This document shows positions 7,431-57,508 of a DNA stretch of 64,000 bases, one piece after another. The notes below the pieces were generated by a model, which was given only the letters and a program-made list of their open reading frames with translations, was not told the DNA's origin and ran no database searches. Each line of letters starts with the position of its first letter. Positions within the stretch are counted from its first letter, which is position 1. Source of the DNA: Candidatus Curtissbacteria bacterium (GTDB lineage: Bacteria > Patescibacteriota > Microgenomatia > Curtissbacterales > GWA2-41-24); contig JAUSJC010000010.1 in NCBI GenBank assembly GCA_030647775.1, forward strand, positions 72,718 through 136,717. Reading direction: 5' to 3'. The position numbers and the translations under genes were made by a program.

Positions 7431-7438
7431 TCATCCCG

Positions 7439-7512
7439 AACTGACACTTGTGTCATCCCGAACTTGTTTCGGGATCTATTTTGATTCAGGATCTTTCCGA
7501 CAATTATATATT
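7439..7512. repeat. Palindromic MITE-like element, GTCATCCYGAAC...GTTCRGGATGAC family (hairpin GATCCCGAAACAAGTTCGGGATGAC)
   Basis: Nearly identical copies at 21639-21748 and 63624-63716; related copies at 17803-17858, 19381-19415, 8281-8372, 49161-49258, 52521-52608, 31332-31394, 25245-25309. Confidence 0.85.
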
Positions 7513-7600
7513 CTTCGAGTGAGTTCTGCATTGCAGAACGAATCGAGAAGTTTAGAAGTTTGAATAGTTCTCGACTTCGCTCGAACAATAAATCAATAGT
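7513..7600. repeat. MITE-like element with terminal inverted repeats CTTCGAGYGAG ... GCTCGAACAATA and internal palindrome GTTCTGCATTGCAGAAC
   Basis: Family copies at 8183-8240, 12926-12960, 18556-18660, 19246-19330, 26205-26240, 30888-30977, 35660-35754, 52497-52644, 63950-63990. Confidence 0.8.
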
Positions 7601-7615
7601 TGTACAATATAAGTA

Positions 7616-8182
7616 ATGCAAAAAGGTTTCATCGGTCCGACAATTGTCGTACTCATCGGCATTCTTGCCCTAGCTGGTCTAATTGGTCTTGCCTTTTACC
7701 TCGGCAAAAAATCCACCGGCCCAACAGCGACAACCCCTGTTGCCCAGCAAGATGAAACTACAAATTGGAAAACATACACAAGTCAAGTAACCCAGGTGGA
7801 ACTTAAATTGCCACAAGATTGGACAGAACGCCAAGAAGGCAAAACGCTTTTCTTGAAAGACAAGAAAAGCACGAGTGAGATTACAATTGTAAAAGATTTT
7901 GAAGGAGGTTTTGGGAGCAACTTGGAAGAGGCAAGGGATCCAAGGGAGATTACAATAGGCGGACAAAAAGCAACTATATATTATTATCACTCTGCCGACA
8001 ATTTTGCTGTTCTTCTTGGTGAATCCGGAACCCCAGTAGTAGATAGGGAGAACATATTTTCCAACATCTTTATCGAAAGAGGACAAGGAAACTATTTAAT
8101 TTTGGGAATGTGGAAGGCAACAGATCAGGATGCAGAAATATTACTTAACCAAATCCTCTCCACCTTCAAATTCACAAACTAG
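7616..8182 (+). CDS. Secreted/membrane-anchored protein, paralog A of a 3-member family (N-terminal signal anchor, ...GKKSTGPTATTPV..NWKTYT.. core, C-terminal QILSTFKFT)
   Basis: 188 aa; paralogs at 17882-18553 and 18698-19243 share N- and C-termini with divergent middle; -10-like element immediately upstream (leaderless-type start). Confidence 0.6.
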   Translation: MQKGFIGPTIVVLIGILALAGLIGLAFYLGKKSTGPTATTPVAQQDETTNWKTYTSQVTQVELKLPQDWTERQEGKTLFLKDKKSTSEITIVKDFEGGFGSNLEEARDPREITIGGQKATIYYYHSADNFAVLLGESGTPVVDRENIFSNIFIERGQGNYLILGMWKATDQDAEILLNQILSTFKFTN

Positions 8183-8280
8183 TTAGTTCTCGACTCATTC
8201 CGTCGAGCCAGACTCGACCCCATTCGCTCGAATAATAATCATATACCCGTTTTTTTGACGATCGCAAATTTTTTGGGTAT

Positions 8281-12925: not shown

Positions 12926-12979
12926 TCTGATAGGTTCTCGACTTCGCTCGAACGATATTCTTATGCTAAAATCCGCTAG

Positions 12980-17744: not shown

Positions 17745-17858
17745 CCGCCTGTCATTGCGAGGAGTTCTGCATTGCAGAACGACGAAGCAATCTCTTCATA
17801 ACCGTCATTCCGAACTTGTTTCGGAATCTAGATCCTGAAATAAATTCAGGATGACAGT
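17745..17858. repeat. Two adjacent palindromic elements (GTCATTGCGAGGAGTTCTGCATTGCAGAACGACGAAGCAATCTC and GTCATTCCGAACTTGTTTCGGAATCTAGATCCTGAAATAAATTCAGGATGAC)
   Basis: Direct reading. Confidence 0.85.
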
Positions 17859-17881
17859 AACAGTTGTATAATCAATTCACA

Positions 17882-18553
17882 ATGCAAAAACGCGGAATTA
17901 TCCTCCCACTAATCCTTATCGCAATACTCGCCATTGCCGGTTTAATCGCCCTCGGAATCTCTATTGGCAAAAAATCCTCCGGCCCAACAGCGACAAATCC
18001 GGTTGTTACAGTTCAAGCCTCACCCGTTCCATCTCCATCTCCAGATGAAACTGCAAATTGGAAAACATACACCAATAATCTTGTAAAGTTCTCTCTCAAG
18101 CTTCCGACGGATATAGAAGTAGTAGGAATAGGTATAGGGCCACCAGCGGCAATTGATGCAAGCGAAGTCATAATTTGTAGAGGTTGCAATAATTCCGTAG
18201 ACCCAGCAAAGACGCCTCTAATCTATATCCGGACGACTGAACTAAAATACACAATTTTCAAAGACATGGCTTTTTCTGGTATCGTGAAACAAAATTATGA
18301 TGCCAACATTGCCAATAAAAATAGCACCAAATCCGTTATTAAGCCACTGCAACAAATTACTTTTGCAGGAGAGCCGGCCTTTACTTATACTTTGGATAGC
18401 TCAGGCTACAGTGGCAAATATGACGGCTTTACGACTTATTCAGGCATAAACAAAATCATTGAGGTTCAACGTAATGGAATCTTTTATGTTTTTATTTATG
18501 TGCAAGATTCGACTTTTGACCAAATCCTCTCCACCTTCAGGTTCACGCAATAG
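17882..18553 (+). CDS. Secreted/membrane-anchored protein, paralog B (contains SPSPSP linker)
   Basis: Starts MQKRGIILPL...; TTGTATAAT 10 nt upstream suggests leaderless start (ORF track start 17864 is TTG inside the -10 box); C-terminal QILSTFRFTQ. Confidence 0.6.
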   Translation: MQKRGIILPLILIAILAIAGLIALGISIGKKSSGPTATNPVVTVQASPVPSPSPDETANWKTYTNNLVKFSLKLPTDIEVVGIGIGPPAAIDASEVIICRGCNNSVDPAKTPLIYIRTTELKYTIFKDMAFSGIVKQNYDANIANKNSTKSVIKPLQQITFAGEPAFTYTLDSSGYSGKYDGFTTYSGINKIIEVQRNGIFYVFIYVQDSTFDQILSTFRFTQ

Positions 18554-18555
18554 AG

Positions 18556-18660
18556 ATTGCTTCGCTTAGAGTTTCCGACTTCGCTCGCAATGACATAATT
18601 AGTTAGTTCTCGACTCGTTCTGCAATGCAGAACTTGCTCGAACAATATTGTTCGACTTTA
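18556..18660. repeat. Composite repeat (GAGATTGCTTCGCTTAG..CTCGCAATGAC + TTAGTTCTCGACTCGTTCTGCAATGCAGAACTTGCTCGAACAATA)
   Basis: Near-identical copy at 19246-19330 (tandem duplication of gene+repeat). Confidence 0.85.
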
Positions 18661-18697: not shown

Positions 18698-19243
18698 ATG
18701 TCCAAACACGGCTTCGTTGGCCCTGCAGTTGTCATCTTAGTTGCTCTCATTTCAATCGCCGGTTTAATCGCTCTTGGAATCTACATAGGCAAAAAATCCT
18801 CCGGCCCAAAGGCAACAAATCCGGTTGTTACAGTTCAAACCTCACCCGTTCCATCTTCTGATGAAACCGAAAATTGGAAGACATACACTATGAAAGATGT
18901 AAAAATCACTTTCAAATATCCCCCAGATTGGAAAATGAGTGAATACCCGGTAAACCAAAGTGGCAATTATAGTGCTCAATTTAATGGTAAAGAAGGCCGC
19001 ATAGACCTTATCTGGGGTGGAGAAGGCTATGGAGGAGCATGTCCCGGGGGATATGAAAAAATAAATTTTCTTAGTAAGAATCAAGATGTTTGTCGCTCAA
19101 TTCAGCCAAACGGCTCAGAGATTATAGGAATACTTTCGGCAACACCTGATAACACACCATTCGATATAGGCCTTACGAGTAATTCTAAGGAAAACAATGA
19201 TTTAATGCAGCAAATCCTTTCCACCTTCAAATTCACAAAGTAG
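18698..19243 (+). CDS. Secreted/membrane-anchored protein, paralog C
   Basis: 181 aa; shares N-terminal anchor, GKKSSGPKATNPVVTVQTSPVPS and C-terminal QQILSTFKFTK with paralog B. Confidence 0.6.
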   Translation: MSKHGFVGPAVVILVALISIAGLIALGIYIGKKSSGPKATNPVVTVQTSPVPSSDETENWKTYTMKDVKITFKYPPDWKMSEYPVNQSGNYSAQFNGKEGRIDLIWGGEGYGGACPGGYEKINFLSKNQDVCRSIQPNGSEIIGILSATPDNTPFDIGLTSNSKENNDLMQQILSTFKFTK

Positions 19244-19418
19244 AGATTGCTTCGCTTAGCTCGCAATGACATAATTAGTTAGTTCTCGACTCGTTCTGCA
19301 ATGCAGAACTCGCTCGAACAATATAGTTCGACCTTGCCTGCCCGTCAAAACTTTAGTGTCGTCGGGTGGAGAACTTCCAATTGACTAGATTCTGAAACAA
19401 GTTCAGAATGACAGGAAT

Positions 19419-20611: not shown

Positions 20612-21643
20612 TTAAAATCTGGTCGCGCGAAGTAAAAACCATCTTAGCGTGTCGGCCGCACTAAGAAGCCTATATAAAGTAGGATCTAAGACCAAATCAT
20701 ATGTTCCCACGTACTCCACGTGCCTGGCCCCATAACCAGCCTTAAATCTATGGAACCCATACCACGGGTCATTGGTGTCTGGCTCCGGGCCAAGCGCCCC
20801 CCACATATCAAATGTTTTAAGCTCTAATTTTTTACCCAGTCTGATTGCCTCCCAAGCAAGCAGGTTCGAAGCCATTACATCTTTATACTTTGTCGACGAT
20901 CCGCCATACGGGTAATATAGTGTGTCGCCAAAGCTAAAAAGCATCCAAGCCACAAGCGGTTTTTTATTGTACTTGGCGATCATTACTCGTGCCATTCTGG
21001 AATCTTTTAAAGTTTTCCAAGCCAAACGGTGATAGGTGGGTGTATGGCCAAAATATTTCTGGCGTTTGGTCGTTTCAAAGTAAAGTTTTAGGTAAATCTC
21101 AAAGTCTTTATCCTCCACCGAGTCATAAACTTCCACGCCCTTTTTCTGCGCCACTTTTATGTTGTAACGTGTCTTTGGATGCATCCCGGCCAAAATTTGC
21201 TCTTCGGATCGGGTCAAATCCAGCACGAAATTGTATTTGGTGAACAGCGCCTTCTTGGCCTTTACCAATCCTAATTTTTCTATGTTTTGAGTTTGGAGTT
21301 TTGAGTTTGGAGTTTGAATCACGTCCGGTTCAATCTTAATAAACGCCGCATTTTTCTCCCGTCCAATAGCTTCGAGCGCGTCGACCATTCCCTTATCCGG
21401 CATCGGTCCTTTTGGGAAATAGCCGATTGTCCAGTTCAGTTTTGGTACTTTATGGAATGTTAGCTGGTAAGCTTTCTTCAGGGTCCGACCCTCGAAATGC
21501 CCGACCCGCACAACGTCTACTCCAGTTTTCTTCCTAAATTCCCCCCATTCCCACGACTGGATTATATGGGAAGCTTGTTTGTCGTAAGCAGTGCGGACTT
21601 TGTCAGTCAGTATTCTGTAGGACATATACTCTTCTTCCGTCAT
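20612..21643 (-). CDS. FemAB-family peptidoglycan interpeptide-bridge aminoacyltransferase (FemX-like)
   Basis: QSWEWGEF motif, 343 aa; contains GGGTCCGACCC repeat copy (21480-21507, encodes EGRTL). Confidence 0.8.
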   Translation of the reverse strand: MTEEEYMSYRILTDKVRTAYDKQASHIIQSWEWGEFRKKTGVDVVRVGHFEGRTLKKAYQLTFHKVPKLNWTIGYFPKGPMPDKGMVDALEAIGREKNAAFIKIEPDVIQTPNSKLQTQNIEKLGLVKAKKALFTKYNFVLDLTRSEEQILAGMHPKTRYNIKVAQKKGVEVYDSVEDKDFEIYLKLYFETTKRQKYFGHTPTYHRLAWKTLKDSRMARVMIAKYNKKPLVAWMLFSFGDTLYYPYGGSSTKYKDVMASNLLAWEAIRLGKKLELKTFDMWGALGPEPDTNDPWYGFHRFKAGYGARHVEYVGTYDLVLDPTLYRLLSAADTLRWFLLRATRF

Positions 21644-21748
21644 CCTGAACTGACACCTGTGTCATCCCGAACTCGTTTCGGGATCTGTCTTGTTTCAGGA
21701 TCTTTTTTGAGATGCTGAACTGAATTCAGCATGACATGGTACTGTTGA
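21639..21748. repeat. Palindromic MITE-like element (near-identical to 7439-7512) plus GATGCTGAACTGAATTCAGCATGAC hairpin
   Basis: Direct reading; abuts femAB start codon. Confidence 0.85.
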
Positions 21749-26208: not shown

Positions 26209-26240
26209 TTAGTTCTCGACAAGCTCGAACAATAATTTTA

Positions 26241-28350: not shown

Positions 28351-28392
28351 CCTTCGGATAAATTCGGAGTAAAAATTAGGATGAATTAGGAT
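28351..28392. repeat. AATTCGGA direct repeats + AATTAGGAT motif (copy c)
   Basis: CCTTCGGATAAATTCGGAGTAAAAATTAGGATGAATTAGGATC; related to 34284-34328 and 59434-59520. Confidence 0.6.
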
Positions 28393-28634
28393 CTATAGCT
28401 CGAAATAAACTTCAGCGTTCCAACGACGAATAAAGTCAGTCCGACAACAAAAATTATATAAGTTAAACCCGTCGATCCGGCATTGGGCAAACTGGAAGTG
28501 GTTCCGCCGCCGACTGCTGAACTTGTAGAAGCGCCAAGCAGAAAATCGCTTTTACTCTGCGCCATTACATTACCGGCAAATGTCATTGCTATCGAAAACG
28601 GAGTAACAAAAGAAGCTACGCGTAAAATTTTCAT
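28386..28634 (-). CDS. Small secreted/membrane protein (signal peptide + C-terminal TM), hypothetical
   Basis: 82 aa; plausible but unsupported by homology. Confidence 0.3.
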   Translation of the reverse strand: MKILRVASFVTPFSIAMTFAGNVMAQSKSDFLLGASTSSAVGGGTTSSLPNAGSTGLTYIIFVVGLTLFVVGTLKFISSYRS

Positions 28635-30689: not shown

Positions 30690-32585
30690 ATGAACATCCG
30701 AAACTTTGCTCTAATTGCCCATATTGACCATGGCAAATCAACTCTTGCCGATCGTATTATGGAAGCCTGCGGCGCAGTTGGTACTTCTCACCAAGCCCAG
30801 CTTTTGGATAGTCTGGAGCTGGAGCGCGAGCACGGCATTACCATCAAACTCAAGGCGATCCGATTAGTTTACAAACCGGAAAATATTCTTCGAGCGAGCG
30901 AAGCGAGTCGAGAAGTTTCCACTGAAAATATTAATAGTTCTAAAGGTAAGTTCTCGATAAACTCGAACAATAATGACGCATTCATCTTGAACTTACTTGA
31001 TACTCCCGGCCATGTCGATTTTTCTTACGAGGTTTCCCGTTCGCTGGCCTCTGTCGAAGGCGCGATCCTAATTGTTGATGCTACTCAAGGCGTCCAGGCC
31101 CAAACGCTTTCCAATTTCACCCTCGCCCTCGATGCTAACCTCACCCTAATTCCCGTCATCAATAAGATTGATTCACCCCAAGCCGAGGTTGAAAAAACCC
31201 AGGAAGAGCTGAAAAACCTTGGTTTTTCACAAGCGGAAATAATCAAAGTTTCTGCCAAAACAGGCGAAGGAGTGGATCATCTTCTCGAACAAATCGTCAG
31301 CCGCATCCCACCGCCCACAAACTTCTCCGCACGTCATTCTGAACTCGTTTCAGAATCTAAAGACAAGATCCCGAATCAAGTTCGGGATGACAAGTTGAGA
31401 GCCCTCATTTTCGATTCCAGTCTAGATCCCTACAAAGGCGTCATCGCGACAGTCCGCTTATTTGGCGGAGGCCTAAAAGTAGGGGACCAGATAAAATTTT
31501 TGGCAACCGGCGCGCAAGCAGAGGTATTGCAAATCGGCTACCTAACTCCGGTCGTCAAATATGTCAATGAAATTAAATCGGGTGAAGTCGGCTTTATCGT
31601 TACCAATCTTAAGGACTTATTCAAAGTCGAAGTCGGGGATACCATCACCAGTCCCAAGGATCCGGCCAAACCGCTTCTCGGTTATAAGCATGCCAAACCG
31701 GTTGTTTTCCTTTCCTTTTATCCAACCGATGTCGGCGATTTTCCAAAATTAAAAGAAGGCCTGGAAAAATTAAAGCTAAACGATGCGGCGCTTTCCTTTT
31801 CCCCGGAAACTTCCATCTCCCTGGGCCAGGGCCTTCGCGTCGGCTTCCTCGGCTTACTCCACGCTCAAATTACCCAGGAGCGTTTGGAGCGCGAACATAA
31901 TCTGGATATTATTGCCGTTTCGCCTTCTGTCAATTTCGAAGTTGACGGCAAGCTTATCAATAAACCGTCGGAATTTGATCCGGCCGCCCAAAACGTCAAA
32001 GAGCCTTATGCCAAAGTAACCATTTTTGCCCCTCAAAAATATTTCGGCACCGTCTCCAATCTTGTTCACGACAAAAGAGGGACTCTCGGCAACTCCGAAA
32101 ACATCGGAAATCTTTTGAAAATCGAATGCGAAATTCCGCTCTTAGAACTTCTAATTGGTTTTTACGACCAATTAAAGACGCAAACTTCCGGTTACGGATC
32201 GCTCGATTTTGAACTGTCGGAGTATAAACCGGCAAAACTGGCCAAACTCGATATTCTGGTCAATCACGAACCGATAGAAGCCCTAACCCAGATTGTTCCG
32301 TACCAAAGGGCTGAAGAAATTGGCCGCAAATTTGTGGAAAAACTAAAAGATGCCATCCCGCGCCAGCAAATCCCAGTTCCAATCCAGGCGGCCATCGGCG
32401 GCAAAATTATCGCCCGCGAAACAATCGCCTCCTTTAGAAAAGACGTTACTGCTAAACTCTACGGCGGCGATGTCACGCGCAAGATGAAGCTTTTGCAAAA
32501 GCAAAAGAAGGGGAAGAAACGAATGAGAAGATTTGGAAGTGTCGATATTCCACAAGAAGCTTTCCTGGCTGTCCTTAAAGTATAA
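30690..32585 (+). CDS. lepA: Elongation factor 4 (LepA) carrying two in-frame repeat-element insertions
   Basis: IAHIDHGKSTL, DTPGHVDF, NKID, C-terminal LepA-specific domain; 631 aa vs ~600 typical. Confidence 0.9.
   Translation: MNIRNFALIAHIDHGKSTLADRIMEACGAVGTSHQAQLLDSLELEREHGITIKLKAIRLVYKPENILRASEASREVSTENINSSKGKFSINSNNNDAFILNLLDTPGHVDFSYEVSRSLASVEGAILIVDATQGVQAQTLSNFTLALDANLTLIPVINKIDSPQAEVEKTQEELKNLGFSQAEIIKVSAKTGEGVDHLLEQIVSRIPPPTNFSARHSELVSESKDKIPNQVRDDKLRALIFDSSLDPYKGVIATVRLFGGGLKVGDQIKFLATGAQAEVLQIGYLTPVVKYVNEIKSGEVGFIVTNLKDLFKVEVGDTITSPKDPAKPLLGYKHAKPVVFLSFYPTDVGDFPKLKEGLEKLKLNDAALSFSPETSISLGQGLRVGFLGLLHAQITQERLEREHNLDIIAVSPSVNFEVDGKLINKPSEFDPAAQNVKEPYAKVTIFAPQKYFGTVSNLVHDKRGTLGNSENIGNLLKIECEIPLLELLIGFYDQLKTQTSGYGSLDFELSEYKPAKLAKLDILVNHEPIEALTQIVPYQRAEEIGRKFVEKLKDAIPRQQIPVPIQAAIGGKIIARETIASFRKDVTAKLYGGDVTRKMKLLQKQKKGKKRMRRFGSVDIPQEAFLAVLKV
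30888..30977. repeat. MITE-like element (TTCGAGCGAG...GTTCTCGATAAACTCGAACAATAATGAC) inserted in frame in lepA G domain
   Basis: Encodes ~ILRASEASREVSTENINSSKGKFSINSNNN between conserved KAIRLVYKP and LNLLDTPGH. Confidence 0.8.
31332..31394. repeat. Palindromic element CGTCATTCTGAACTCGTTTCAGAATC...CCGAATCAAGTTCGGGATGAC inserted in frame in lepA
   Basis: Encodes SARHSELVSESKDKIPNQVRDD in loop after PPP motif. Confidence 0.8.
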
Positions 32586-34266: not shown

Positions 34267-34283
34267 CCTTGATCTTAGTTCAT

Positions 34284-34328
34284 ATTCGGATTAATTCGGA
34301 CTAAGAATTCGGATCAATTAGGGAAATT
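34284..34328. repeat. Three phased direct repeats AATTCGGA(T/C)TAA in hrcA 5'UTR ending in AATTAGGG
   Basis: ATTCGGATTAATTCGGACTAAGAATTCGGATCAATTAGGG. Confidence 0.7.
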
Positions 34329-35051: not shown

Positions 35052-35672
35052 ATGAAAAACGATATGCCCAAAACCAAATCTAACAAAACGGCCGAAGGCC
35101 CTGAGCAAAGTCGAAGGGACCAAAAACACGTCGAAGACCTTGAGCGCAGTCGAAGGGCCGAAGACCCTGAGCAAAGTCGAAGGGCCGCAGGTCATGAGAA
35201 TGATCGAATGGAGCTCGAAAACCGGCTCAAGCGTGCCCTTGCCGATTACCAGAATCTGGAGCGCCGTGTAGAAGAAGAGCGCAGGCTTTTGGGTCAACTT
35301 TCGTCAGCTCTTTTGATCGAGAAATTTTTGCCGGTTTTGGATAATCTGGAAAACGCCCAAAAACATTTGAACGACGAGGGCCTGGAAATTGTCATCCGTC
35401 AATTTAAAGATATTCTGTCTTCCGAAGGTGTTGAAGAAATCGAGTCCGTTGGTGCTGCTTTTGACCCTCATCAGCACGAAGCAGCCGAAGTCCAGGAAGG
35501 CGAAAACGACAATACAGTTGTCAAAGTCTTGCGTAAAGGTTATAAAATGAATGATAAGGTTCTTCGACCTGCCCAAGTTGTTGTCGAGAAAAAATCCGCC
35601 GGCGACAGCCAATCAGACAGTCTTGGTCAGGGAGTAAAAGAAGAGGAGGTTAATTATTCTTCGAGCGAGTGA
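35052..35672 (+). CDS. grpE: Nucleotide exchange factor GrpE with repeat-derived N-terminal extension
   Basis: LKRALADYQNLERRVEEERR core; N-terminus contains three tandem ~21-nt units (35099-35186) encoding PEQSRRD/LERSRRA/PEQSRRA. Confidence 0.85.
   Translation: MKNDMPKTKSNKTAEGPEQSRRDQKHVEDLERSRRAEDPEQSRRAAGHENDRMELENRLKRALADYQNLERRVEEERRLLGQLSSALLIEKFLPVLDNLENAQKHLNDEGLEIVIRQFKDILSSEGVEEIESVGAAFDPHQHEAAEVQEGENDNTVVKVLRKGYKMNDKVLRPAQVVVEKKSAGDSQSDSLGQGVKEEEVNYSSSE
35099..35186. repeat. Three tandem copies of CCYTGAGCRMAGTCGAAGGGMC inside grpE coding sequence
   Basis: Same unit at 12891-12911, 57298-57318, 48497-48518, 45839-45862, inverted at 35693-35712. Confidence 0.8.
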
Positions 35673-35754
35673 AACGAGTCGAGAAGTTTTAGTTCTCGAC
35701 AAGTCTTCGACCGTGAGGCTCAGACCGAATCGGCTCGAACAATAAAAAACTAAT
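35660..35754. repeat. MITE-like element (CTTCGAGCGAGTGAAACGAGTCGAGAAG...GGCTCGAACAATA) spanning grpE stop and dnaK start region
   Basis: Family TIRs; encodes grpE C-terminal NYSSSE. Confidence 0.75.
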
Positions 35755-39285: not shown

Positions 39286-39329
39286 CCCCAATTTTCCCGC
39301 CCGAATTTTTTTGGCTTTGATATAATTGC
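39286..39329 (+). promoter_or_regulatory. Cassette boundary/promoter motif copy 1 (degenerate): CCCCAATTTTCCCGCCCGAATTTTTTTGGCTTTGATATAAT
   Basis: Extended -10 TGATATAAT 39318-39326, 6 nt before ATG 39333. Confidence 0.6.
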
Positions 39330-39332
39330 TTG

Positions 39333-39659
39333 ATGCAAACAAAAATTATTTTGACAACCTCTACACTTATCATCGTATCTTTGCTTGTCGGTGCATTTTA
39401 TTGGTTTGTATCGAGACCTCAAGAGATTAGAAAAAGATGTTACAGTGAAATGTCCAGTTTAAGTGTTGATATTACTAAGCCCCCTAACGAAGCTTCCAGC
39501 TCTGTTTTTACTAGTACTCTCCCGCCACTAAGTAATGTAGGTCAACAAATACTTGAAGGTAAAAAACTAATTACCGATAAAGATAAAAATAATTATTACA
39601 GATCTTGCCTCGTAAAAAATGGACTCAAGCCCGAATCGCTATATGTGAATGTAAATTGA
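39333..39659 (+). CDS. Small membrane-anchored hypothetical protein (cassette 1)
   Basis: ~108 aa, N-terminal TM. Confidence 0.4.
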   Translation: MQTKIILTTSTLIIVSLLVGAFYWFVSRPQEIRKRCYSEMSSLSVDITKPPNEASSSVFTSTLPPLSNVGQQILEGKKLITDKDKNNYYRSCLVKNGLKPESLYVNVN

Positions 39660-39694
39660 GATTCCAATAAGTAAGCACAATTAGAATTTTAGTT

Positions 39695-39720
39695 CCCCAA
39701 ATTCCCCGCTCGATTTTGCT
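39695..39720 (+). promoter_or_regulatory. Cassette boundary motif copy 2 (CCCCAAATTCCCCGCTCGATTTTGCT; -10 part degenerate)
   Basis: Direct reading. Confidence 0.6.
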
Positions 39721-39742
39721 TTGAGTTGTCCCAAAAAGAAGC

Positions 39743-40378
39743 TTAACTGACCAATTCTCTTAGGTCTGGTACTTCTAAAACTTTTCCAAGTTCCCACTCA
39801 TTGCCATTAAAATCAAATCTCGGTATTGAATAAACGCTTCTTTGTCTTGATATTCCCCTAATAATTGGGCCCAAGCGTTGCAAGCTATTAAGCCTATCTT
39901 CGTTTCGTTTTCTGATTTGACCTTCTATTCCAGTATGTGCCGCTCCAATTACCGTTACAAGGTGGTTCAGACCTTCTACGTTTTTCATCAGCCATTCCTC
40001 TTTATGCGCGGTGATAGTTTCCCTGAGTCTTGAAGTTGGTCGAAAGGGCAAAAGGTAAATTTCTGGGAAAGCAATAAAACTCCTAATGCCTAAGTCTGCA
40101 TGATATACAGGGATTCGATACCTTTCCGCGTAATCAAGAACGCTAGAAAATTGCGGAAGAAATAGTCTGCCTAGCCCACTAAAATATTCTGGAAGCTCCT
40201 GTCCATATCTATCGGATGGCCACTCTATAACAAACGCGTCTAAATCGGGGGGAACAAAATCTAAATTTGTCCTTCGGTTGTGAGCACCATACACGATTGT
40301 GTAGACCCCTTCGGGCTTTTCGATTCGAGTAACTTTACTAGGGTCTTCTTGTCTTAAACGTTCATTCATAGCAAAAGT
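39743..40378 (-). CDS. TraB/GumN-like family protein (tentative; cassette 2, inverted)
   Basis: VYGAHN and VIGAAHTGIEG GxxH-type motifs; ORF-track N-terminus (to 40549) is antisense of neighbouring EamA TM region and boundary motif, so start placed at MNERLRQ. Confidence 0.35.
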   Translation of the reverse strand, partial: TFAMNERLRQEDPSKVTRIEKPEGVYTIVYGAHNRRTNLDFVPPDLDAFVIEWPSDRYGQELPEYFSGLGRLFLPQFSSVLDYAERYRIPVYHADLGIRSFIAFPEIYLLPFRPTSRLRETITAHKEEWLMKNVEGLNHLVTVIGAAHTGIEGQIRKRNEDRLNSLQRLGPIIRGISRQRSVYSIPRFDFNGNEWELGKVLEVPDLRELVS

Positions 40379-40417
40379 GGAGTATAACAGGAATAGTGAG
40401 CCAATTTCAACTATAGG

Positions 40418-40456
40418 CCCAAATTCCCCGCTCGATTTCCGTAACTTCTGATATAC
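40418..40456 (+). promoter_or_regulatory. Cassette boundary/promoter motif copy 3 (CCCAAATTCCCCGCTCGATTTCC...TGATATACT)
   Basis: -10-like TGATATACT 40448-40456, ATG 40464. Confidence 0.6.
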
Positions 40457-40463
40457 TTTTCTC

Positions 40464-41312
40464 ATGTCTTGGATCGTATTGGCACTAGCTAGCGTTATAT
40501 TTTTCTCTATTTCCGCGCTGCTCCAAAAAGTCTTGATGAAAAACGACAAAAGCGACCCGTACGCCTATTCCATAATGTTTCAATTCTTAATCTGGGCTGT
40601 GGCGGCAACCGTTGTTCTTTGGACTGGCTTTGTTATGCCCCCCATTAAGACATACCCACTCAATTTCTTGTTTTCGTCTGTTATGTACGGCCTTGGAACC
40701 ATTTGTGCTTTTAAGGCGCTTAAATATATAGAAGCTTCGGAATTCACAATAATAAGCTCTGTAAAAGCTATCGTTACGATTATTTCTGCTGTTTTAATTT
40801 TGGGTGAAGTTTTTGATTACAAAAAGGCACTTGGTACCGCATTGGTTTTAATTTCTGCATATTTAGTTACCCAAAAATCCAGAAAAATAAAGTTCAACAA
40901 AGGCACCCTTTATGCTTTAGGGACTGCGCTGACGTATGGACTCGCTATTACAAACGACACATTTCTACTAAAATATTCTGAAGTATTTTCGTATCTGACA
41001 GTTGGTAATCTAATCACAGTACTTTTTGTGATTGCAATAAAACCCACAGCGGTTAAAAATTTAAACCATTTTTTCGATCTCGCGATTCTTTCCAAAATGC
41101 TTATACTCGGCATCTTATATTCTTTTGGAGCAGTCGCCTTTTATTTGGCAATTCAAAGTGGTGCAGCAGCTTCTCAAATCTCGCCGATTTTGCAGACCTC
41201 TGTAATTGTCACGGTTCTACTCGCAGCCATATTTTTGGGCGAAAGAGACAATTTGGTTAAAAAAATCGCAAGCGCTATATTGGTAACAATTGGAGTAATA
41301 CTAATTAAGTAG
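40464..41312 (+). CDS. EamA/DMT-superfamily transporter (cassette 3)
   Basis: 282 aa, 10 TM, duplicated EamA domains. Confidence 0.7.
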   Translation: MSWIVLALASVIFFSISALLQKVLMKNDKSDPYAYSIMFQFLIWAVAATVVLWTGFVMPPIKTYPLNFLFSSVMYGLGTICAFKALKYIEASEFTIISSVKAIVTIISAVLILGEVFDYKKALGTALVLISAYLVTQKSRKIKFNKGTLYALGTALTYGLAITNDTFLLKYSEVFSYLTVGNLITVLFVIAIKPTAVKNLNHFFDLAILSKMLILGILYSFGAVAFYLAIQSGAAASQISPILQTSVIVTVLLAAIFLGERDNLVKKIASAILVTIGVILIK

Positions 41313-41313
41313 A

Positions 41314-41349
41314 CCCAAATTCCCCGCTCGATTTTTGCCCTGATATAAT
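41314..41349 (+). promoter_or_regulatory. Cassette boundary/promoter motif copy 4 (CCCAAATTCCCCGCTCGATTTTTGCCCTGATATAAT)
   Basis: Extended -10 TGATATAAT 41341-41349; ATG 41356 (leaderless). Confidence 0.65.
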
Positions 41350-41355
41350 CACCTG

Positions 41356-41931
41356 ATGACAAAACTTATTTTTATCACGCATCCCGCCGTCGATGTTGAC
41401 CCCACGATTCCTATTAATCAGTGGCATGTTTCCAAAGATGGACAAAAGCAAATTGACAACCTTTTGACATTGCCCTTTTGGTCGGAAGTAGATGTGATTT
41501 ACTCAAGCCAAGAAGGGAAAGCGCTGAATACCGCGAATAAGATCAAAAGCCATTTTGACCATCTCAAATCTCCGGCACCAGAAGGAACGTTTGATCTGCA
41601 CGAAATAGACAGAAGCGCAACCGGAGTTCTTCCAAAAGACGTATACGATAAAGCGATCGAAGAATTTTACCTGTACCCCAATAAAAGTTATAAAGGATGG
41701 GAAACAGCAAACGCGGCAAAAGAGAGGATTTTTAAAGTTGTAAGCCAAATTATTGATGATAACCCCAATAAAACTGTTGCCATCGTTGGTCATGGGGCCA
41801 CCGGAACACTCTTAGCCTGCCAGATTAAAAAAATCGAACCCTCTTTTGCCGAGGATCCGCACACAAACGGCTGCATTATGGTTTACGATTGGGACGAAAA
41901 GACAATACTTTCGCCCTGGACCAAGTATTAA
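41356..41931 (+). CDS. Histidine-phosphatase superfamily (PGM-like) protein (cassette 4)
   Basis: LIFITHPAV (RHG-position His) and VAIVGHGATG second His motif. Confidence 0.5.
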   Translation: MTKLIFITHPAVDVDPTIPINQWHVSKDGQKQIDNLLTLPFWSEVDVIYSSQEGKALNTANKIKSHFDHLKSPAPEGTFDLHEIDRSATGVLPKDVYDKAIEEFYLYPNKSYKGWETANAAKERIFKVVSQIIDDNPNKTVAIVGHGATGTLLACQIKKIEPSFAEDPHTNGCIMVYDWDEKTILSPWTKY

Positions 41932-41976
41932 AATTCCCCGCTCGATTTTTGGTCCCTTGATGAATTAATGTATAAT
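41931..41976 (+). promoter_or_regulatory. Cassette boundary/promoter motif copy 5 (AAATTCCCCGCTCGATTTTTGGTCCCTTGATGAATTAATGTATAAT)
   Basis: TATAAT 41971-41976 followed by AGGAAAGGA SD-like and ATG 41996. Confidence 0.6.
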
Positions 41977-41995
41977 TTATAGGAAAGGATTTAAT

Positions 41996-42187
41996 ATGTC
42001 TGCAATTGACCTTCGGAAAATCTTAAAAGAGAACAAATCTGGGTGGGTAGCTTTAACTCAAGATAACAAAAAGAAAATAGCGCAAGGTAAAACCCTCAGC
42101 GAAGTACTTAAAAAAGCCAAAGAAAAGGGAATCGAAAAGCCCAGTGTGTTTAAAGTTCCTTCTCTGGGCACTTACTATGTCGGTTAA
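41996..42187 (+). CDS. Small lysine-rich protein (DUF5678-like/antitoxin-like, tentative), translationally coupled to downstream protease (cassette 5)
   Basis: 63 aa; stop overlaps next start (TAATG). Confidence 0.4.
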   Translation: MSAIDLRKILKENKSGWVALTQDNKKKIAQGKTLSEVLKKAKEKGIEKPSVFKVPSLGTYYVG

Positions 42188-42642
42188 TGGATTTCAGCTA
42201 CACAATTGTCACTGACTGGCCTAATCATCAAGTTCGTCAACGCTATCTCCCTTGGATAAATATCGGAATTAAAAAACCTGGCAAAGAAGACACAATTTGG
42301 CCATTGGGACTTGTAGATTCCGGTGCGGAAATAACTATTTTAGATAGAGAAATCGGAGAAGAACTGGGATTTAACTTTAAAAAAGCGGCGAGAGACATAA
42401 TCACCGGTTTTGGTGGGGGTAAAGTAGAAGTGTTTCTTCTGCAAGCGGAATTCGTCATCGATGATAATAGTGGGAAGGAACCTATTATATATAAAGATTT
42501 GTTAGGATTTACAAAAGGCCAATTCCCTCAAACCCATCCACAGCAAACTGCCATATTTGGAACCATAGGTTTATTTAGAAATGCTCAAGTTAATTTTCGG
42601 TATCCGACTAATATTCATATAGAACAATTCAAAGCGAAATAA
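42187..42642 (+). CDS. Retropepsin-like (clan AA) aspartic protease
   Basis: GLVDSGAEITILD contains D-S-G-A catalytic motif; 151 aa size typical of bacterial/archaeal retropepsin-like proteins. Confidence 0.6.
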   Translation: MDFSYTIVTDWPNHQVRQRYLPWINIGIKKPGKEDTIWPLGLVDSGAEITILDREIGEELGFNFKKAARDIITGFGGGKVEVFLLQAEFVIDDNSGKEPIIYKDLLGFTKGQFPQTHPQQTAIFGTIGLFRNAQVNFRYPTNIHIEQFKAK

Positions 42643-42645
42643 TTT

Positions 42646-42689
42646 CCCCCAAATTCCCCGCTCGCGATATTTGCTTTTGATATAATCTC
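42646..42689 (+). promoter_or_regulatory. Cassette boundary/promoter motif copy 6 (CCCCCAAATTCCCCGCTCGCGATATTTGCTTTTGATATAAT)
   Basis: Extended -10 TGATATAAT 42680-42688; ATG 42693. Confidence 0.65.
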
Positions 42690-42692
42690 TTC

Positions 42693-43418
42693 ATGCAAAG
42701 CTTCACTTTTAATAGCGATAATCTCAAATTAGATGGGGCGCTTTTTTATCCCCCGATTAAAAAGGTTAAACACCCTGCTATTCTTTTTGTTCATGGTTGG
42801 ACGAGCGCGAAAGAAAGAAGTTTTCAGTATGCAGAAGCGCTCGCTGATTTAGGTTACATCTGCTTATTGTTTGACATGAGGGGTCACGGAACAAGCGAAG
42901 GCGATATTAATGCTTCTACTTTCAAAGACTTTCTAGAGGATGTTATGAGCGCCTACGATTATCTTTTAGGGACGAGCGGCGTTAATCCGGAGAATATCAG
43001 CTCCGTGGGATCAAGTTTTGGTGGATATCTTGTGGCCCTTCTTTCCTCAAAAAGAAAAGTAAAGAATTTAGTATTACGTGTACCGGCAGATTACCCTAAC
43101 GAATCGTTTAATGATCTTAAAAAATTATATAGTGGCGATGATCCGGAAGCAGTGAACTGGCGAAATCAGTCAAGGAAATCAACCGAAACATACGCGCTTG
43201 AAGCACTGAATAATTTTAAAGGCGATATCTTGATTATTGAATCAGAAAAAGATGATACAGTTCCTCATCAAACAATTGTAAATTATATAAACGCAGTCAA
43301 AGACAAAAACAGATTAACTCATATCGTTATGAAAGATGCCCCACACAGTTTAAAAGAAGGTAAATTTAGAGATGAGGTTGGGCGAATACTTGCTAAGTGG
43401 TTTCAAAATAAATCCTGA
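42693..43418 (+). CDS. Alpha/beta hydrolase (dienelactone hydrolase/peptidase S9-like) (cassette 6)
   Basis: GSSFGG nucleophile elbow, HGW...., C-terminal D and H. Confidence 0.7.
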   Translation: MQSFTFNSDNLKLDGALFYPPIKKVKHPAILFVHGWTSAKERSFQYAEALADLGYICLLFDMRGHGTSEGDINASTFKDFLEDVMSAYDYLLGTSGVNPENISSVGSSFGGYLVALLSSKRKVKNLVLRVPADYPNESFNDLKKLYSGDDPEAVNWRNQSRKSTETYALEALNNFKGDILIIESEKDDTVPHQTIVNYINAVKDKNRLTHIVMKDAPHSLKEGKFRDEVGRILAKWFQNKS

Positions 43419-44781: not shown

Positions 44782-46137
44782 ATGGCAATACAACAAAGAA
44801 GTGAATTTGCGTCAGCTCTAAACCAGGTTTGTTCCGAGCGCGGAATCGAACCGGCAGTGGTTATCGACTCCATAAAACAGGCAATTCTGGCGGCCTACCG
44901 CAAAGATTACGGCGAACCCGAAGGTATTGAGGTCGAGATCAACGAGGTTAGCGGCGAGGTTACCCTCAAAAAGGATAAAGAAATTGTCACTCCTCCGGGC
45001 TTTGGCCGCATTGCCGCCCAAACCGCCAAACAGGTAATCTTACAAAGGATCAGGGAAGCGGAAAAAGAAGCCATCATGGGTGAATATTCTTCCAAAGTCG
45101 GCACCGTAGTTTCCGGAGTAATCCAGCGCATTTCCGGCCCGATTGTCACTATCAGTCTTGGTAAAGCCGAAAGTATTATGCCCCCGCCGGAACAGGCTCG
45201 CGGCGAAAAATATTATGTCAACCAACGCCTGAAATTTTATATTGTCGGTATCAAAGAAGGTATGCATGGCGAAGAAATCATCGTTTCCCGTTCGGCAAAC
45301 GGTCTTCTGGAAGGTTTATTCAAACAGGAAGTACCGGAAATGGCTTCTGGCGCAGTCGAGGTTAAGGCTATGGCCCGTGAAGCCGGATCGCGTTCTAAAA
45401 TTGCCGTTGCTTCCGGGCAGCTTGGTGTCGACCCGGTCGGTTCTTGTGTCGGCCAAAAAGGCGTCCGCGTGCAGGCAGTAATCAACGAACTCGGCGACGA
45501 AAAAATCGACGTTATTGCTTATCAGGAAGACTTGGCGCAGTTTATACAAGCCGCGCTTTCTCCGGCTAAAGACCTGCAGGTTAAAATCGACGAAAAAACA
45601 AAAGTCGCCGAAGTGACGGCGCCCGACGACCAGCTTTCTTTGGCTATCGGTAAAGAAGGCCAAAACGTGCGCTTGGCGGCCAAACTGACCGGTTACAAAA
45701 TTGACATTCGCGGCAAAAGTGGTACACCTAGAGAAGTAGAAGCCAAAGGGAAAGCCGCGCAGGAAGAAGCCAGAAAAGCCTTTGGAGTTACAGAAGAGTC
45801 GAGGGAGCCAAAGGTCGAAAACACTGAGCAAGCTACAGCCCTGAGCTCGTCGAAGGTCGAAGACCATGAGCGTAGTCGAATGGGTCGAAGTGCAGACGAT
45901 CAGGCTAAGATAGCGCAAGTCCCGTCAGGCGATGGTCAACCAAAAACTGACGAGGTTCCGGTAGGAGACACAGAGCCATTAATTTCGAGTAAACGAGAAA
46001 TAAGCTCTCTTATCGCCGATGCCGAAGAGAAAAAAGAAGAGGAAGAGGCAGAAAAAGTAGCAGAAGAAATCAAAGTTAAGCCGGAAAAAGCAGAAGAAAA
46101 TGAATCAAAACCAGATTCATCAGACGATCAACCGTAA
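44782..46137 (+). CDS. nusA: Transcription termination/antitermination factor NusA with repeat-derived acidic C-terminal extension
   Basis: N-terminal domain, S1 and two KH domains (GQLGVDPVGSCVGQKGVRVQAV, LAIGKEGQNVRLAAKLTGYKIDI); C-terminus contains repeat units at 45839-45862 and 46006-46028. Confidence 0.9.
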   Translation: MAIQQRSEFASALNQVCSERGIEPAVVIDSIKQAILAAYRKDYGEPEGIEVEINEVSGEVTLKKDKEIVTPPGFGRIAAQTAKQVILQRIREAEKEAIMGEYSSKVGTVVSGVIQRISGPIVTISLGKAESIMPPPEQARGEKYYVNQRLKFYIVGIKEGMHGEEIIVSRSANGLLEGLFKQEVPEMASGAVEVKAMAREAGSRSKIAVASGQLGVDPVGSCVGQKGVRVQAVINELGDEKIDVIAYQEDLAQFIQAALSPAKDLQVKIDEKTKVAEVTAPDDQLSLAIGKEGQNVRLAAKLTGYKIDIRGKSGTPREVEAKGKAAQEEARKAFGVTEESREPKVENTEQATALSSSKVEDHERSRMGRSADDQAKIAQVPSGDGQPKTDEVPVGDTEPLISSKREISSLIADAEEKKEEEEAEKVAEEIKVKPEKAEENESKPDSSDDQP

Positions 46138-47622: not shown

Positions 47623-48597
47623 ATGGATCAAAACTCTAAACAAAAAACCCTCGATAATTTAACAAAGGCCGAAATCATCCTAGTTGCCGTATCGGAAAAT
47701 GCCGGTTTTGACGGCATGGCAGCGGGCCTTGCCCTTTATCTTTCTTGTCTTAAGCTTGGCAAAAACACGGCTGTTCAAGCCAAAAACCCGTCTGTTGATG
47801 ATGCCCAAAGGCTTTACGGTGTAGATAAGATTGGCCGCATAGAAGGAAGCAAAAATCTCGTCATTGTTGTTAACGATGCAGTCGAAAACGTTGACAAGGT
47901 TACTTATTCACTTGAGGGTACAAAACTCAAAATAGTTGTCCATCCTTTCCCAGGCGCCAAAAATGTCAACCGCCACCAAATTTCTTTTGAGGAGACTTCT
48001 ACAAAACCCAATTTAGTTTTTGCAGTAGGTTTCCAAACACAAGAAGAATTGAATCAAGTTATTGCTCATGAGCAAAATTTAGACCCAACCATCTGGATTA
48101 TCAATATTAACAAGCAGGACGTAGGCCAATTGTCCGCTCAAGTTAGCGCCAATAATTCCCAAGCCGCTTCGATTTGTGAAGTTACGGCCCAAATTTTCCA
48201 ACAGCTTGCCCTGCCGCTGGACGAAGACATTGCTTACAACCTTTATGCCGGTGTTGCCCAAGCCACGAATTATTTTTCCCCAAGCCTGGCAAGCCCTTTA
48301 AGCTTTGAAACGGCTTCGTGGCTTTTGAAATTCGGCGCCGGCCGGGCAAGTTTTGCCAAGGGGCAAAGTTCCCAGTTATCTATGCCAAAACCGCAAATGC
48401 CTCCGCTGGAAGAATCGGATATTGCCGCAGGCGGACAGTTCCAAAATCCTAACCCCTTTGACCAGCCGCCGATTGAGCAAGTTGAAAGGTCAAAGACCCT
48501 GAGCCCAGTCGAAGGGCCGAAGGCTACTACGCAGGAAAATTGGCTAAAGCCGCCCAAAGTTTATAGAGGTTCCAAATCCTTTGACAGCGAGAAGTAA
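47623..48597 (+). CDS. DHH-family (NrnA-like) protein with degenerate catalytic motifs (tentative)
   Basis: EIILVAVSENAGFDGMAAGLAL at position of HxxPDGDAxGS; C-terminus contains repeat-derived KTLSPVEGPKA. Confidence 0.35.
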   Translation: MDQNSKQKTLDNLTKAEIILVAVSENAGFDGMAAGLALYLSCLKLGKNTAVQAKNPSVDDAQRLYGVDKIGRIEGSKNLVIVVNDAVENVDKVTYSLEGTKLKIVVHPFPGAKNVNRHQISFEETSTKPNLVFAVGFQTQEELNQVIAHEQNLDPTIWIININKQDVGQLSAQVSANNSQAASICEVTAQIFQQLALPLDEDIAYNLYAGVAQATNYFSPSLASPLSFETASWLLKFGAGRASFAKGQSSQLSMPKPQMPPLEESDIAAGGQFQNPNPFDQPPIEQVERSKTLSPVEGPKATTQENWLKPPKVYRGSKSFDSEK

Positions 48598-49160: not shown

Positions 49161-49258
49161 TAGTTCGAATCATCCGCCAGCTGGCGGATTATGATTCTCA
49201 CTATCCGATTTCTAACTCCCCAAAACTTCAACACAGATCCTGAAGCGAGTATCAGGAT
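49161..49258. repeat. Palindromic MITE-like element (ATCATCCGCCAGCTGGCGGATTATGAT ... GATCCTGAAGCGAGTATCAGGATGAC)
   Basis: Direct reading; CCGCCAGCTGGCGG also present in 19731-19746. Confidence 0.75.
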
Positions 49259-52496: not shown

Positions 52497-52644
52497 AGTA
52501 TCCTTCGAGCGAAACAAGAAGTAATGTCATCCTGAACTAGATTCAGGATCTAGATTCCGAAAGATACAGGGCCATGCGACCTAAAGGTCTAAAGTTCGGA
52601 ATGACAATGAATGTAAGTTCTCGTTAACACTCGAACAATATAAA
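52497..52644. repeat. Nested repeat: CTTCGAGCGAAACAAGAAG + GTCATCCTGAACTAGATTCAGGATC...GTTCGGAATGAC + GTTCTCGTTAACACTCGAACAATA
   Basis: TIR family element containing palindromic family element. Confidence 0.8.
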
Positions 52645-56795: not shown

Positions 56796-57095
56796 ATGCG
56801 TTTGTCGTTAGTCCCAAGTCTTAGTCGCCTGCCCAAAATGGATATAACGCAAATAACACTGCTTTCGGTAATCGTAGTTTTAACTATTTTTCTAGTGGTT
56901 ATCGGCTTTCAAGTATTCTTCTTAATCCGCGATCTTCGTAAAACCCTTTCCCGTACCAATCGCCTTTTGGACGATGCCGACAGCCTCGTTGCCGGTATCA
57001 AAAAACCCATCGAAGGCGCCGGCAATATTTTTACGGCCATGACCGCCGGAGTTGGTATTGCCCATCTTCTTAAGAGGCTTGAGAAGAAAAAATGA
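56796..57095 (+). CDS. DUF948-like small membrane protein
   Basis: 99 aa, N-terminal TM followed by helical region. Confidence 0.4.
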   Translation: MRLSLVPSLSRLPKMDITQITLLSVIVVLTIFLVVIGFQVFFLIRDLRKTLSRTNRLLDDADSLVAGIKKPIEGAGNIFTAMTAGVGIAHLLKRLEKKK

Positions 57096-57508
57096 ACGAC
57101 CACAACCACAATCCAAATCACAACAGCAACAATATTTCTTCACTTGTAGCAGGTGTAGTTTTAGGTGCCGCCCTAACTTATCTCTTTGGTACAAAAAGCG
57201 GCCAGAAATTAAAGGACGAACTTGTAAAAGAAGGCCAAAAGCTCCTTGAAGAAATGGGCAAGGAACTTGAAGAAACCAAGGATAAAATCGCCGAAGGTCC
57301 TGAGCGAAGTCGAAGGGAAGAAAGTGAAGTCGGCAAAAAATTAGAATCGGTCAAAGAAAAAGCCGAAGGCACTAAGTTGGTTCAAAATGCCATTGAAGCA
57401 AAAGAACAGTTGCAAGAGGTTATCGAAGACGTTCCAAAGCACATCGAAGAAATCCAGAAAAAAGGCCGCCGCTTTTTCTTCAAGCGCTCTGCCGCCCACG
57501 AGTCGTAA
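57092..57508 (+). CDS. YtxH-like small membrane protein with repeat-derived insert
   Basis: SLVAGVVLGAALTYLFGTKSGQKLKDEL YtxH-type N-terminus; contains GPERSRRE unit (57298-57318). Confidence 0.45.
   Translation: MNDHNHNPNHNSNNISSLVAGVVLGAALTYLFGTKSGQKLKDELVKEGQKLLEEMGKELEETKDKIAEGPERSRREESEVGKKLESVKEKAEGTKLVQNAIEAKEQLQEVIEDVPKHIEEIQKKGRRFFFKRSAAHES

Follow-up and report, generated by a model that had tools for sequence, protein, structure and literature searches.

In-frame palindromic repeats of two families in a lepA gene of Candidatus Curtissbacteria: probable selfish insertions in permissive loops

How does the gene of a conserved translation factor come to carry, within its reading frame, DNA that is otherwise scattered as palindromic repeats? 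The question is posed by lepA in a stretch of 64,000 nucleotides (nt) from a Candidatus Curtissbacteria bacterium (NCBI GenBank assembly GCA_030647775.1, contig JAUSJC010000010.1, positions 72,718 to 136,717 of the forward strand), which is referred to throughout as the window and which bears out an earlier impression, drawn from the letters alone, of a genome like those of the Candidate Phyla Radiation (CPR). The answer that we regard as probable is that two unrelated, non-autonomous palindromic elements, here called element 1 and element 2, were inserted into lepA and were tolerated where the frame was kept in permissive loops. It is carried by the membership of both inserts in repeat families, their absence from the nearest orthologue, the preservation of the frame, the position of both in loops of a structural model, and the recurrence of such inserts in other genes and at the same two sites of other lepA genes.

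The identity of the host gene is secure. Its product contains the domains GTP_EFTU, domain II, EFG_C and LepA_C, the G1-G5 motifs are intact (AHIDHGKST at amino acids (aa) 10-18, DTPGH at 104-108, NKID at 158-161 and SAK at 188-190), and domain set, motifs and a fold match to solved EF4 alike place it in LepA/EF4. There is an NCBI entry for an identical protein, encoded on a 527-kb contig of a Candidatus Curtissbacteria metagenome-assembled genome (MAG). Calling LepA essential, as the original prediction did, is an overstatement, given that a lepA deletion is viable in E. coli and the gene is dispensable under standard conditions. The two extra segments that it described are real: in an alignment to T. 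thermophilus EF4 (5imq_B), aa 64-93 are unmatched and a gap covers some 19 aa between IPPP and LRALIFDS, neither segment is present in the closest orthologue, and the quoted peptides are present in the protein. The first insert reads ILRASEASREVSTENINSSKGKFSINSNN(N), at aa 66-94(95), and the second (SA)RHSELVSESKDKIPNQVRDD, at aa (213)215-234. Their boundaries had to be adjusted, from 30888-30977 to 30884-30972 for the first and from 31332-31394 to 31332-31391 for the second. The claim that the frame runs on through both holds in whole codons: element 1 together with one TA amounts to 87 nt, or 29 codons (I66-N94), and element 2 to 60 nt, or 20 codons (R215-D234). Tryptic peptides that exist only if the inserts are translated are ASEASR, EVSTENINSSK, FSINSNNNDAFILNLLDTPGHVDFSYEVSR, HSELVSESK and IPNQVR.

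Element 1 in lepA consists of a TA (30884-85), the element proper (30886-30970) and a second TA (30971-72). From the left inverted repeat TTCTTCGAG (30886-30894) it runs through TCGAGAAGTT and a variable centre to AGTTCTCGA and the right inverted repeat CTCGAACAA (30962-30970); the terminal repeats TTCTTCGAG/CTCGAACAA are 9-11 bp long and complementary at eight of nine positions, and with the TA they read TATTCTTCGAG/CTCGAACAATA. Scanning metagenomes with the left-arm pattern returned 95 stretches, among which 27 distinct full copies show conservation ending sharply at T/TA/TTCTTCGAG...CTCGAACAA/TA/A, where slashes mark the boundaries, with a variable centre of 0-40 nt between the arms. With terminal inverted repeats, a size of 50-96 nt (the minimal element being about 50 nt) without a transposase open reading frame (ORF), and many diverged copies, element 1 shows several features of a miniature inverted-repeat transposable element (MITE). 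Within the window the 26-mer of its left arm, TTCGAGCGAGCGAAGCGAGTCGAGAA, recurs at 35660 with two mismatches against an expectation of zero, and its right end CTCGAACAATA is matched 13 times against 1.3 expected. The copy in the grpE-dnaK spacer supplies the last five codons and the stop codon of grpE (35655-35672); in the closest relative this spacer is missing and the two genes overlap. Copies reduced to the right arm follow stop codons at 8186-8237, 12934-12957, 18606-18647, 19282-19323 and 26212-26234. A peptide search with insert 1, as a 42-aa query, found no candidate sharing words.

Element 2 is a pair of hairpin units, each of the form ATNNNGAA-loop-TTCNNNAT, in a family that can be written GTCATYCYGAAC. 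The motif GTCATYCTGAAC, with at most one mismatch, is matched 15 times in the window against 0.31 expected, and perfect ATNNNGAA-loop-TTCNNNAT hairpins number 12 against 0.02 expected in Markov simulations. All 12 units have perfect stems despite the use of six different NNN triplets, which amounts to compensatory covariation. In the doublets at 17804-17856 and 31333-31391 the two units are inverted and form a larger hairpin, as in REPINs, which are doublets of repetitive extragenic palindromic (REP) sequences. The lepA copy folds at -23.8 kcal/mol (z = -3.3 against shuffled sequences; z = -4.3 for a spacer copy), and an Rfam scan of the window gave no family match. Matches of both inserts to spacer copies thus stand far above chance, in line with the proposal that they are DNA of dispersed palindromic repeat families; that these families are otherwise intergenic is accurate within the window, but not beyond it, where metagenome genes contain in-frame copies. 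The features of the window that bear on these families are collected in Table 1.

Table 1. Coordinates, in window positions, of lepA, its inserts and related repeat copies.
Feature	Position	Strand	Remarks
lepA (EF4) ORF	30690-32585	+	631 aa; host gene of both inserts
Whole extra loop, site 1	30876-30980	+	aa P63-A97; compared with orthologues that have a minimal 1-aa turn
Element-1 copy in lepA	30884-30972	+	89-nt 'long' subfamily
Element-2 copy in lepA	31332-31391	+	C plus GTCAT...ATGAC doublet; 60 nt
Element-2 hairpin unit A in lepA	31336-31356	+	ATTCTGAA-CTCGT-TTCAGAAT, perfect stem
Element-2 hairpin unit B in lepA	31368-31388	+	ATCCCGAA-TCAAG-TTCGGGAT, perfect stem, different compensated sequence
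Full element-1 copy upstream of metG	7509-7590	+	Small hairpin GTTCTGCATTGCAGAAC nested in left arm
Full element-1 copy, grpE-dnaK spacer	35655-35744	+	Gives last 5 codons and stop codon of grpE
Element-1 copy with nested element-2-type doublet (52526-52605)	~52500-52640	+	Left boundary approximate
Canonical intergenic element-2 doublet	17804-17856	+	52-53 nt
Intergenic cluster of element-2 units	63624-63715	+	Similar clusters at 7430-7494 and 21639-21736
Single element-2 units	19385-19413, 49237-49258		
In-frame insert in AlaRS, 22 aa, SLGPQFCIAERGPHAMALVRGT	58346-58411	+	aa 248-269; alaS 57605-59443; missing from solved AlaRS structures
GrpE N-terminus, three in-frame GAAGGNCCTGAGCNAAGTCGAAGGG-type repeat copies	35085-35199	+	grpE 35052-35672

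Comparison of orthologues, the route by which presence or absence was to be judged, shows that the contents of the two sites vary among close relatives. The closest orthologue (P0002/L001), at 84% amino-acid and 83% nucleotide identity and with the same murJ-lepA synteny, has neither. In a MAFFT alignment of the 120 best LepA homologues, of Curtissbacteria type (65-84% identity, 576-664 aa), nearly all variation in length falls at exactly the two insert sites, with 1-42 aa at site 1 and 5-55 aa at site 2. At least eight types of repeat-derived peptide occupy site 1, including SSFIVH..TINH (26 sequences), LQSTDYS..SQKAVD (11), SDPTLHF (10), LDPQSEGRGSHG (6), NPKSEIRN (3) and the element-1 type (3); at least four occupy site 2, including a GTCAT type in the two reading phases RHSE.. 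and VILN.. (20), LRPGLN..KAWP (10) and NTPGV (6). A scan of genome contigs with LepA, which served as outgroup and yielded five close relatives and otherwise distant phyla, showed just 1-5 residues at these sites outside the CPR. Long, repeat-like site-1 inserts of their own, at the beta2-beta3 position, are present in L026, L030, L036, L041 and L005, which come from Saccharibacteria-labelled MAGs, other Patescibacteria and one Levybacteria. In a neighbour-joining tree from 551 core columns, the window LepA falls in a tight clade (distance 0.07-0.13) that itself contains six different site-1 states. Inserts of the element-1 type are found at the corresponding codon in P0013 (L082) and P0025 (L084), and an element-2 insert with the same two stem variants in P0020 (L083); all three lie in other clades, at distances of about 0.27-0.32, and their sister sequences lack these inserts. 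Had the segments been ancestral domain features, the same segments would be expected at the same positions in distant lineages with conserved protein sequence; what was found is few carriers, insert-free sisters and inserts more alike than the genes around them. Between the window and L082 the insert is 81% and the host gene 69% identical in nucleotides, and between the window and L083 the figures are 82% and 67%.

Both inserts, as had been anticipated, lie in loops, which are modelled at low confidence. An AlphaFold2 model of LepA built from 80 orthologues (mean predicted local distance difference test score, pLDDT, 78.6) keeps the EF4 fold, with a target-normalised TM-score of 0.90 and a root-mean-square deviation of 2.8 A to the A. 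aeolicus LepA crystal structure. The pLDDT drops below 50 at aa 68-94 (insert 1), between the confident strands 56-61 and 98-104, and again at aa 214-224/226-231 (insert 2). By model and fold match together, the G domain carries insert 1 at its beta2-beta3 turn, and insert 2 falls in the linker that joins it to domain II.

Nor is LepA the only protein concerned. Among 81 element-1 copies from the metagenomes, 19, or about 14 distinct ones, are embedded in long ORFs to a depth of at least 45 codons, where all three phases are read (ILRASExSREV..SSRLRSNNN; YSSSERSESRSS..SRQARTI; VFERVKRVEKL). The hosts identified by Pfam are UvrA, AsnB, a GT1 glycosyltransferase, FolD, a pseudouridine synthase, a CobQ-like amidotransferase, Pol IV (dinB), a ComF-like protein, an O-antigen ligase and a PTPS-related membrane protein, to which further membrane proteins identified by eye may be added. 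By eye, too, element 1 was recognised in another LepA (L111), at a third site after GDTIT at the domain II/III junction, with a different repeat at site 1, and in a suf operon (L167, 6034-8618), where a SufS-like ORF has at least three repeat inserts and a SufD-like ORF one, with element-1 copies in both; element 2 was found in frame in a DnaX-like ORF. In the window itself, the AlaRS insert has at its core the hairpin GTTCTGCATTGCAGAAC, of which the window contains six copies, and GrpE has about 37 extra N-terminal residues from repeat copies, missing from its closest orthologue (162 aa).

Taken as insertion, these observations can be assembled into the following mechanism. Element 1 would be of MITE type and element 2 a REPIN-like doublet, GTCAT-hairpin-spacer-hairpin-ATGAC, of 52-60 nt, both belonging to what appears to be a large and mutually nested community of hairpin repeats in the genomes of Curtissbacteria and other CPR bacteria, residing mostly in spacers and repeatedly entering coding loops of housekeeping genes. 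They would have spread by transposition in trans through an unseen transposase; the TA flanking element 1 may represent either a target-site duplication of IS630/Tc1 type or a continuation of the inverted repeat. In lepA they would persist because the frame is kept and no stop codon is introduced, at points, the beta2-beta3 turn and the interdomain linker, that are probably structurally permissive. The inserts are most likely transcribed and translated with lepA, adding about 29 and 20 mostly hydrophilic residues that may form disordered surface loops on an otherwise normal EF4, and would be passengers, selfish or neutral DNA, rather than functional parts of LepA.

Several results weigh against so simple an account. 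Firstly, TA is palindromic and inseparable from the inverted repeat, which leaves a target-site duplication in doubt, and at grpE-dnaK extra spacer bases obscure the comparison of filled and empty states with L001; moreover, element 1 in lepA folds no better than shuffled sequence (z = -0.5), as against z = -1.8 and -4.3 for spacer copies. Secondly, no transposase Pfam domain was found among the roughly 50 ORFs of the window and no RAYT (the REP-associated tyrosine transposase) was seen there, nor did the window and about 2 Mb of fetched loci contain any pair of element-1 ends 0.3-4 kb apart that encloses a transposase, the pairs found being just adjacent small copies flanking or inside suf genes. 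Thirdly, all of the approximately 14 distinct intragenic copies of element 1 (loci L085-L164) are oriented with their host gene, compared with a ratio of just 41:24 for spacer copies and their neighbours. Filtering by stop codons was considered as the cause and rejected: among 27 copies the reverse frames, stop-free in 19, 17 and 22, are as open as the forward ones (16, 20 and 6), so that the bias is not what purely random insertion followed by a stop-codon filter would predict. The lengths of many intragenic copies, counted between the consensus ends, are not divisible by three, and insertion of element plus TA is therefore insufficient for all cases. Finally, the flanking codons (P-D/E-N ... 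N-x-D) are common to the three copies at lepA site 1 and missing from insert-free orthologues, a pattern that one old event spread by descent or recombination fits better than three independent hits.

This last point leads to the rival that survives best, which concerns the history of the inserts and not their origin from repeats. It holds that each site received one ancient insertion, early in the evolution of Curtissbacteria, subsequently made patchy by precise or imprecise deletion, replacement by other elements or short-tract recombination between lineages, so that no repeated transposition into a site is called for, and we consider it a real possibility, if not the expected outcome. The copies in the window, L082 and L084 occupy one and the same codon position, between flanks (CCN GAN ... 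AAT/GAC) not found in insert-free orthologues; the element-2 copies of the window and L083 share the stem variants TCT and CCC, two of the six in use, as well as a pyrimidine tract before GTCAT. A single event is harder to reconcile with carriers in three clades that have insert-free sisters, with the six states in the window's own clade, or with inserts less diverged than their genes. A copy in uvrA on an unrelated contig (L096), from another organism, has the same 89-nt length and central region as the lepA copies and is 89% identical both to that of the window and to that of L082, while these are 84% identical to each other; such star-like similarity favours a dispersed 89-nt subfamily over a LepA-specific ancestral segment. 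At site 2, the two phases of the GTCAT type (RHSE... and VILN...) and their different internal modules require several events. The inserts may accordingly reflect either repeated insertion at a hot spot or a single old event with later loss, replacement or short-tract recombination.

A bolder reading, to which we assign a low probability, is that an undescribed community of tiny nested hairpin elements in Curtissbacteria and other CPR bacteria repeatedly enters the same loops of core proteins (LepA, AlaRS, UvrA, DnaX, SufS and others) in a strand-specific and site-preferential manner by a non-classical mechanism, with major and possibly adaptive diversification of loops as the result. The mechanism may be hairpin-guided insertion of single-stranded DNA, template switching, or copying of a kind resembling gene conversion.

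Exaptation, in which the loops are kept by selection on the protein (for a CPR-specific contact with the ribosome or a partner, for regulation by an mRNA hairpin, or for surface variation), is unlikely. The same two sites are filled in a large share of Curtissbacteria-type LepA and in some Saccharibacteria-labelled ones, the intragenic orientation bias is strict and not explained by stop codons, and the mRNA hairpin of element 2 is stable, as its folding energy attests. Set against this, very close relatives carry inserts of different sequence, length and family, and many carry none, the loops are predicted to be disordered, and identical DNA families occur in spacers and in unrelated proteins.

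It is very improbable that the inserts are left out of the mature protein, whether by translational bypassing, of the sort seen for mobile hairpin inserts in Magnusiomyces mitochondria or in phage T4 gene 60, or by removal from the RNA. Their capacity to form hairpins and the non-triplet lengths of many intragenic element-1 copies might be read in this sense, but every lepA insert examined, across independent assemblies, is an exact multiple of three and stop-free in the host frame (called proteins being a biased sample), and neither a take-off/landing codon pair nor an intron-like structure was seen, nor any Rfam match. Least credible of all is a chimeric join or collapse in assembly, which the MAG source and the standing of repeats as classic points of misassembly might invite, but which is rejected on account of equivalent inserts at the same sites in independent assemblies (NCBI, ENA, Logan and JGI), besides the conserved in-frame LepA sequence on both sides and the identical protein from the NCBI contig. 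Two other candidates were discarded: a lineage-specific structural domain, ruled out by hypervariability among close relatives, and an intein or intron, for which the inserts are too short, without motifs and without an Rfam match.

Among known systems, the nearest functional parallel is that of the Rickettsia palindromic elements (RPEs; Ogata et al. 2000 Science 290:347, as summarised in PMC10969869). The original prediction had drawn this likeness, which proves apt and understated, with element 1 in frame in at least 12 other gene families in metagenomes. Both systems have dispersed palindromic repeats in spacers and in frame in unrelated housekeeping genes, several families per genome, positions compatible with the fold (surface loops), and small genomes of host-dependent bacteria. 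The RPEs, at about 100-150 bp and in the genus Rickettsia, differ from the elements of 50-90 and 52-60 nt described here in a CPR host, with no evident sequence relationship, a statement that does not rest on direct alignment to the RPE-1 to RPE-10 consensus sequences. Where the RPEs are summarised as yielding one conserved peptide, element 1 uses all three phases of one strand; the elements here also nest, and many families strike two narrow sites of one gene across lineages. With different size and host and no evident homology, the system works like RPEs without being one of them.

Element 2 invites comparison with REPs, REPINs and bacterial interspersed mosaic elements (BIMEs), which are associated with RAYT transposases (Bertels & Rainey 2011, PMC3116915): it is likewise a doublet, whose two short inverted hairpins can also pair into a single long one, its stems are kept by compensatory changes, and it forms mosaics and clusters in spacers with no obvious target duplication. 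Unlike REPINs, which are extragenic by definition, it lies inside genes, probably translated, and being in frame in lepA, in other LepA orthologues and in the DnaX-like ORF it falls outside a strictly extragenic definition of REPs; unlike the GTAG-type heads of proteobacterial REPs, it has perfect 8-bp stems with GTC/GAC flanks in a CPR host. Element 1 resembles the bacterial MITEs reportedly mobilised by transposases of IS630/Tc1-mariner type with TA duplication (for example Nezha in cyanobacteria; review PMC10969869) in its short terminal inverted repeats and TA, lack of coding capacity, hairpin fold, AT-rich flanks and many diverged copies and subfamilies. It departs from them in that no cognate autonomous insertion sequence was found in the window and about 2 Mb of fetched loci, half-elements with the right arm only are common just after stop codons, and about a quarter of its copies are intragenic and in frame.

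Very small hairpin repeats, mutually nested and occasionally lying in ORFs to give in-frame fusions, have further precedents. One is the small dispersed repeats (SDRs) of cyanobacteria, reportedly described by Elhai et al. (2008 Genome Res). Another is the intragenic enterobacterial repetitive intergenic consensus/intergenic repeat unit (ERIC/IRU) elements (Delihas 2007). The present elements differ from both in lineage and sequence and in the recurrent use of the same loops in core genes (lepA, alaS, uvrA, dnaX-like and sufS-like). Mitochondrial genes of Nematomorpha contain coding palindromes of up to 284 bp (PMC6649704), in which, as here, inverted repeats lie in coding sequence, with both arms translated there; unlike those here, they are long, organellar and not obviously members of dispersed spacer families. 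Searches of the literature turned up no account of elements of this kind in CPR/Patescibacteria.

The genomes of CPR bacteria count as extremely reduced, but several selfish hairpin families lie here within conserved translation, repair and chaperone genes. Next to Rickettsia, they provide another natural system, one with far more families and a much wider sampled diversity (thousands of MAGs), for asking how proteins tolerate, or perhaps turn to use, random insertions in loops and which loops permit them, and the strict orientation bias and recurrence of sites, going beyond simple filtering, point to an unknown mechanism of insertion or selection. There are practical consequences as well: inserts in marker genes (LepA, AlaRS, IF-2 neighbours) add non-homologous columns to phylogenomic alignments, whilst inserts in general inflate ORFs (the metG 5' extension), supply stop codons (the grpE end) and create risks of repeat-induced misassembly; their presence or absence could serve as a strain marker. 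On the 5' side of metG (5969-7423, minus strand), a repeat cluster at 7419-7621 leaves the metG reading frame uninterrupted for about 65 codons upstream of the likely start, and gene callers could report a false N-terminal extension.

Some further observations concern the repeats and their surroundings. The LepA of L041 additionally has a ..SASPPQDD.. insert at site 2. In the window's own lepA, the native sequence CTTCTCGAACAA (31281-31292; codons LLEQ, kept in the relative), 40 nt upstream of insert 2, resembles the right end of element 1, probably by coincidence. A right half of element 1 (TTAGTTCTCGAC..CTCGAACAATA) lies directly 3' of each of three paralogous small ORFs without a Pfam match (7616-8182, 17864-18553 and 18698-19243). 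A 17-nt hairpin nested at 7521, 17762, 18615, 19291, 48618 and 58358 forms the 'loop' of at least three larger elements (the left arm of element 1, its right arm, and GTCATTGCGAG..CGAAGCAATC) and is also present in the AlaRS insert, and many element loops contain very stable mini-hairpin motifs, GCGAAGC or GCGAAAGC. Repeats of the (A)EGPE(Q/R)SRR type and another kind lie in frame in coding regions at 45850-45898 and 45965-46013 (the nusA tail), 57284-57332 (ORF 57092-57508) and 48480-48531 (ORF 47623-48597).

Short motifs of other kinds stand upstream of genes. A box of 22-30 nt, CCCAAATTCCCCGCTCGATTTT, precedes five or six consecutive genes at 39287-42699; TTTG..TGATATAAT comes after it at three of its six sites, and the CCCAAATTCCCCGCTCGATTTT box looks like a shared promoter or operator. 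The motif TTTACTGG.CGCATGGCACTGTATATAATT, at 26247, 57536, 57570 and 60248, just upstream of trx, alaS and an ORF at 60288, appears promoter-like, with TATAAT. The motif GGAT.AATTCGGA.TAA.AATT.GGAT is repeated at 28356-28396, 34278-34328 and 59480-59520, one copy lying directly upstream of hrcA.

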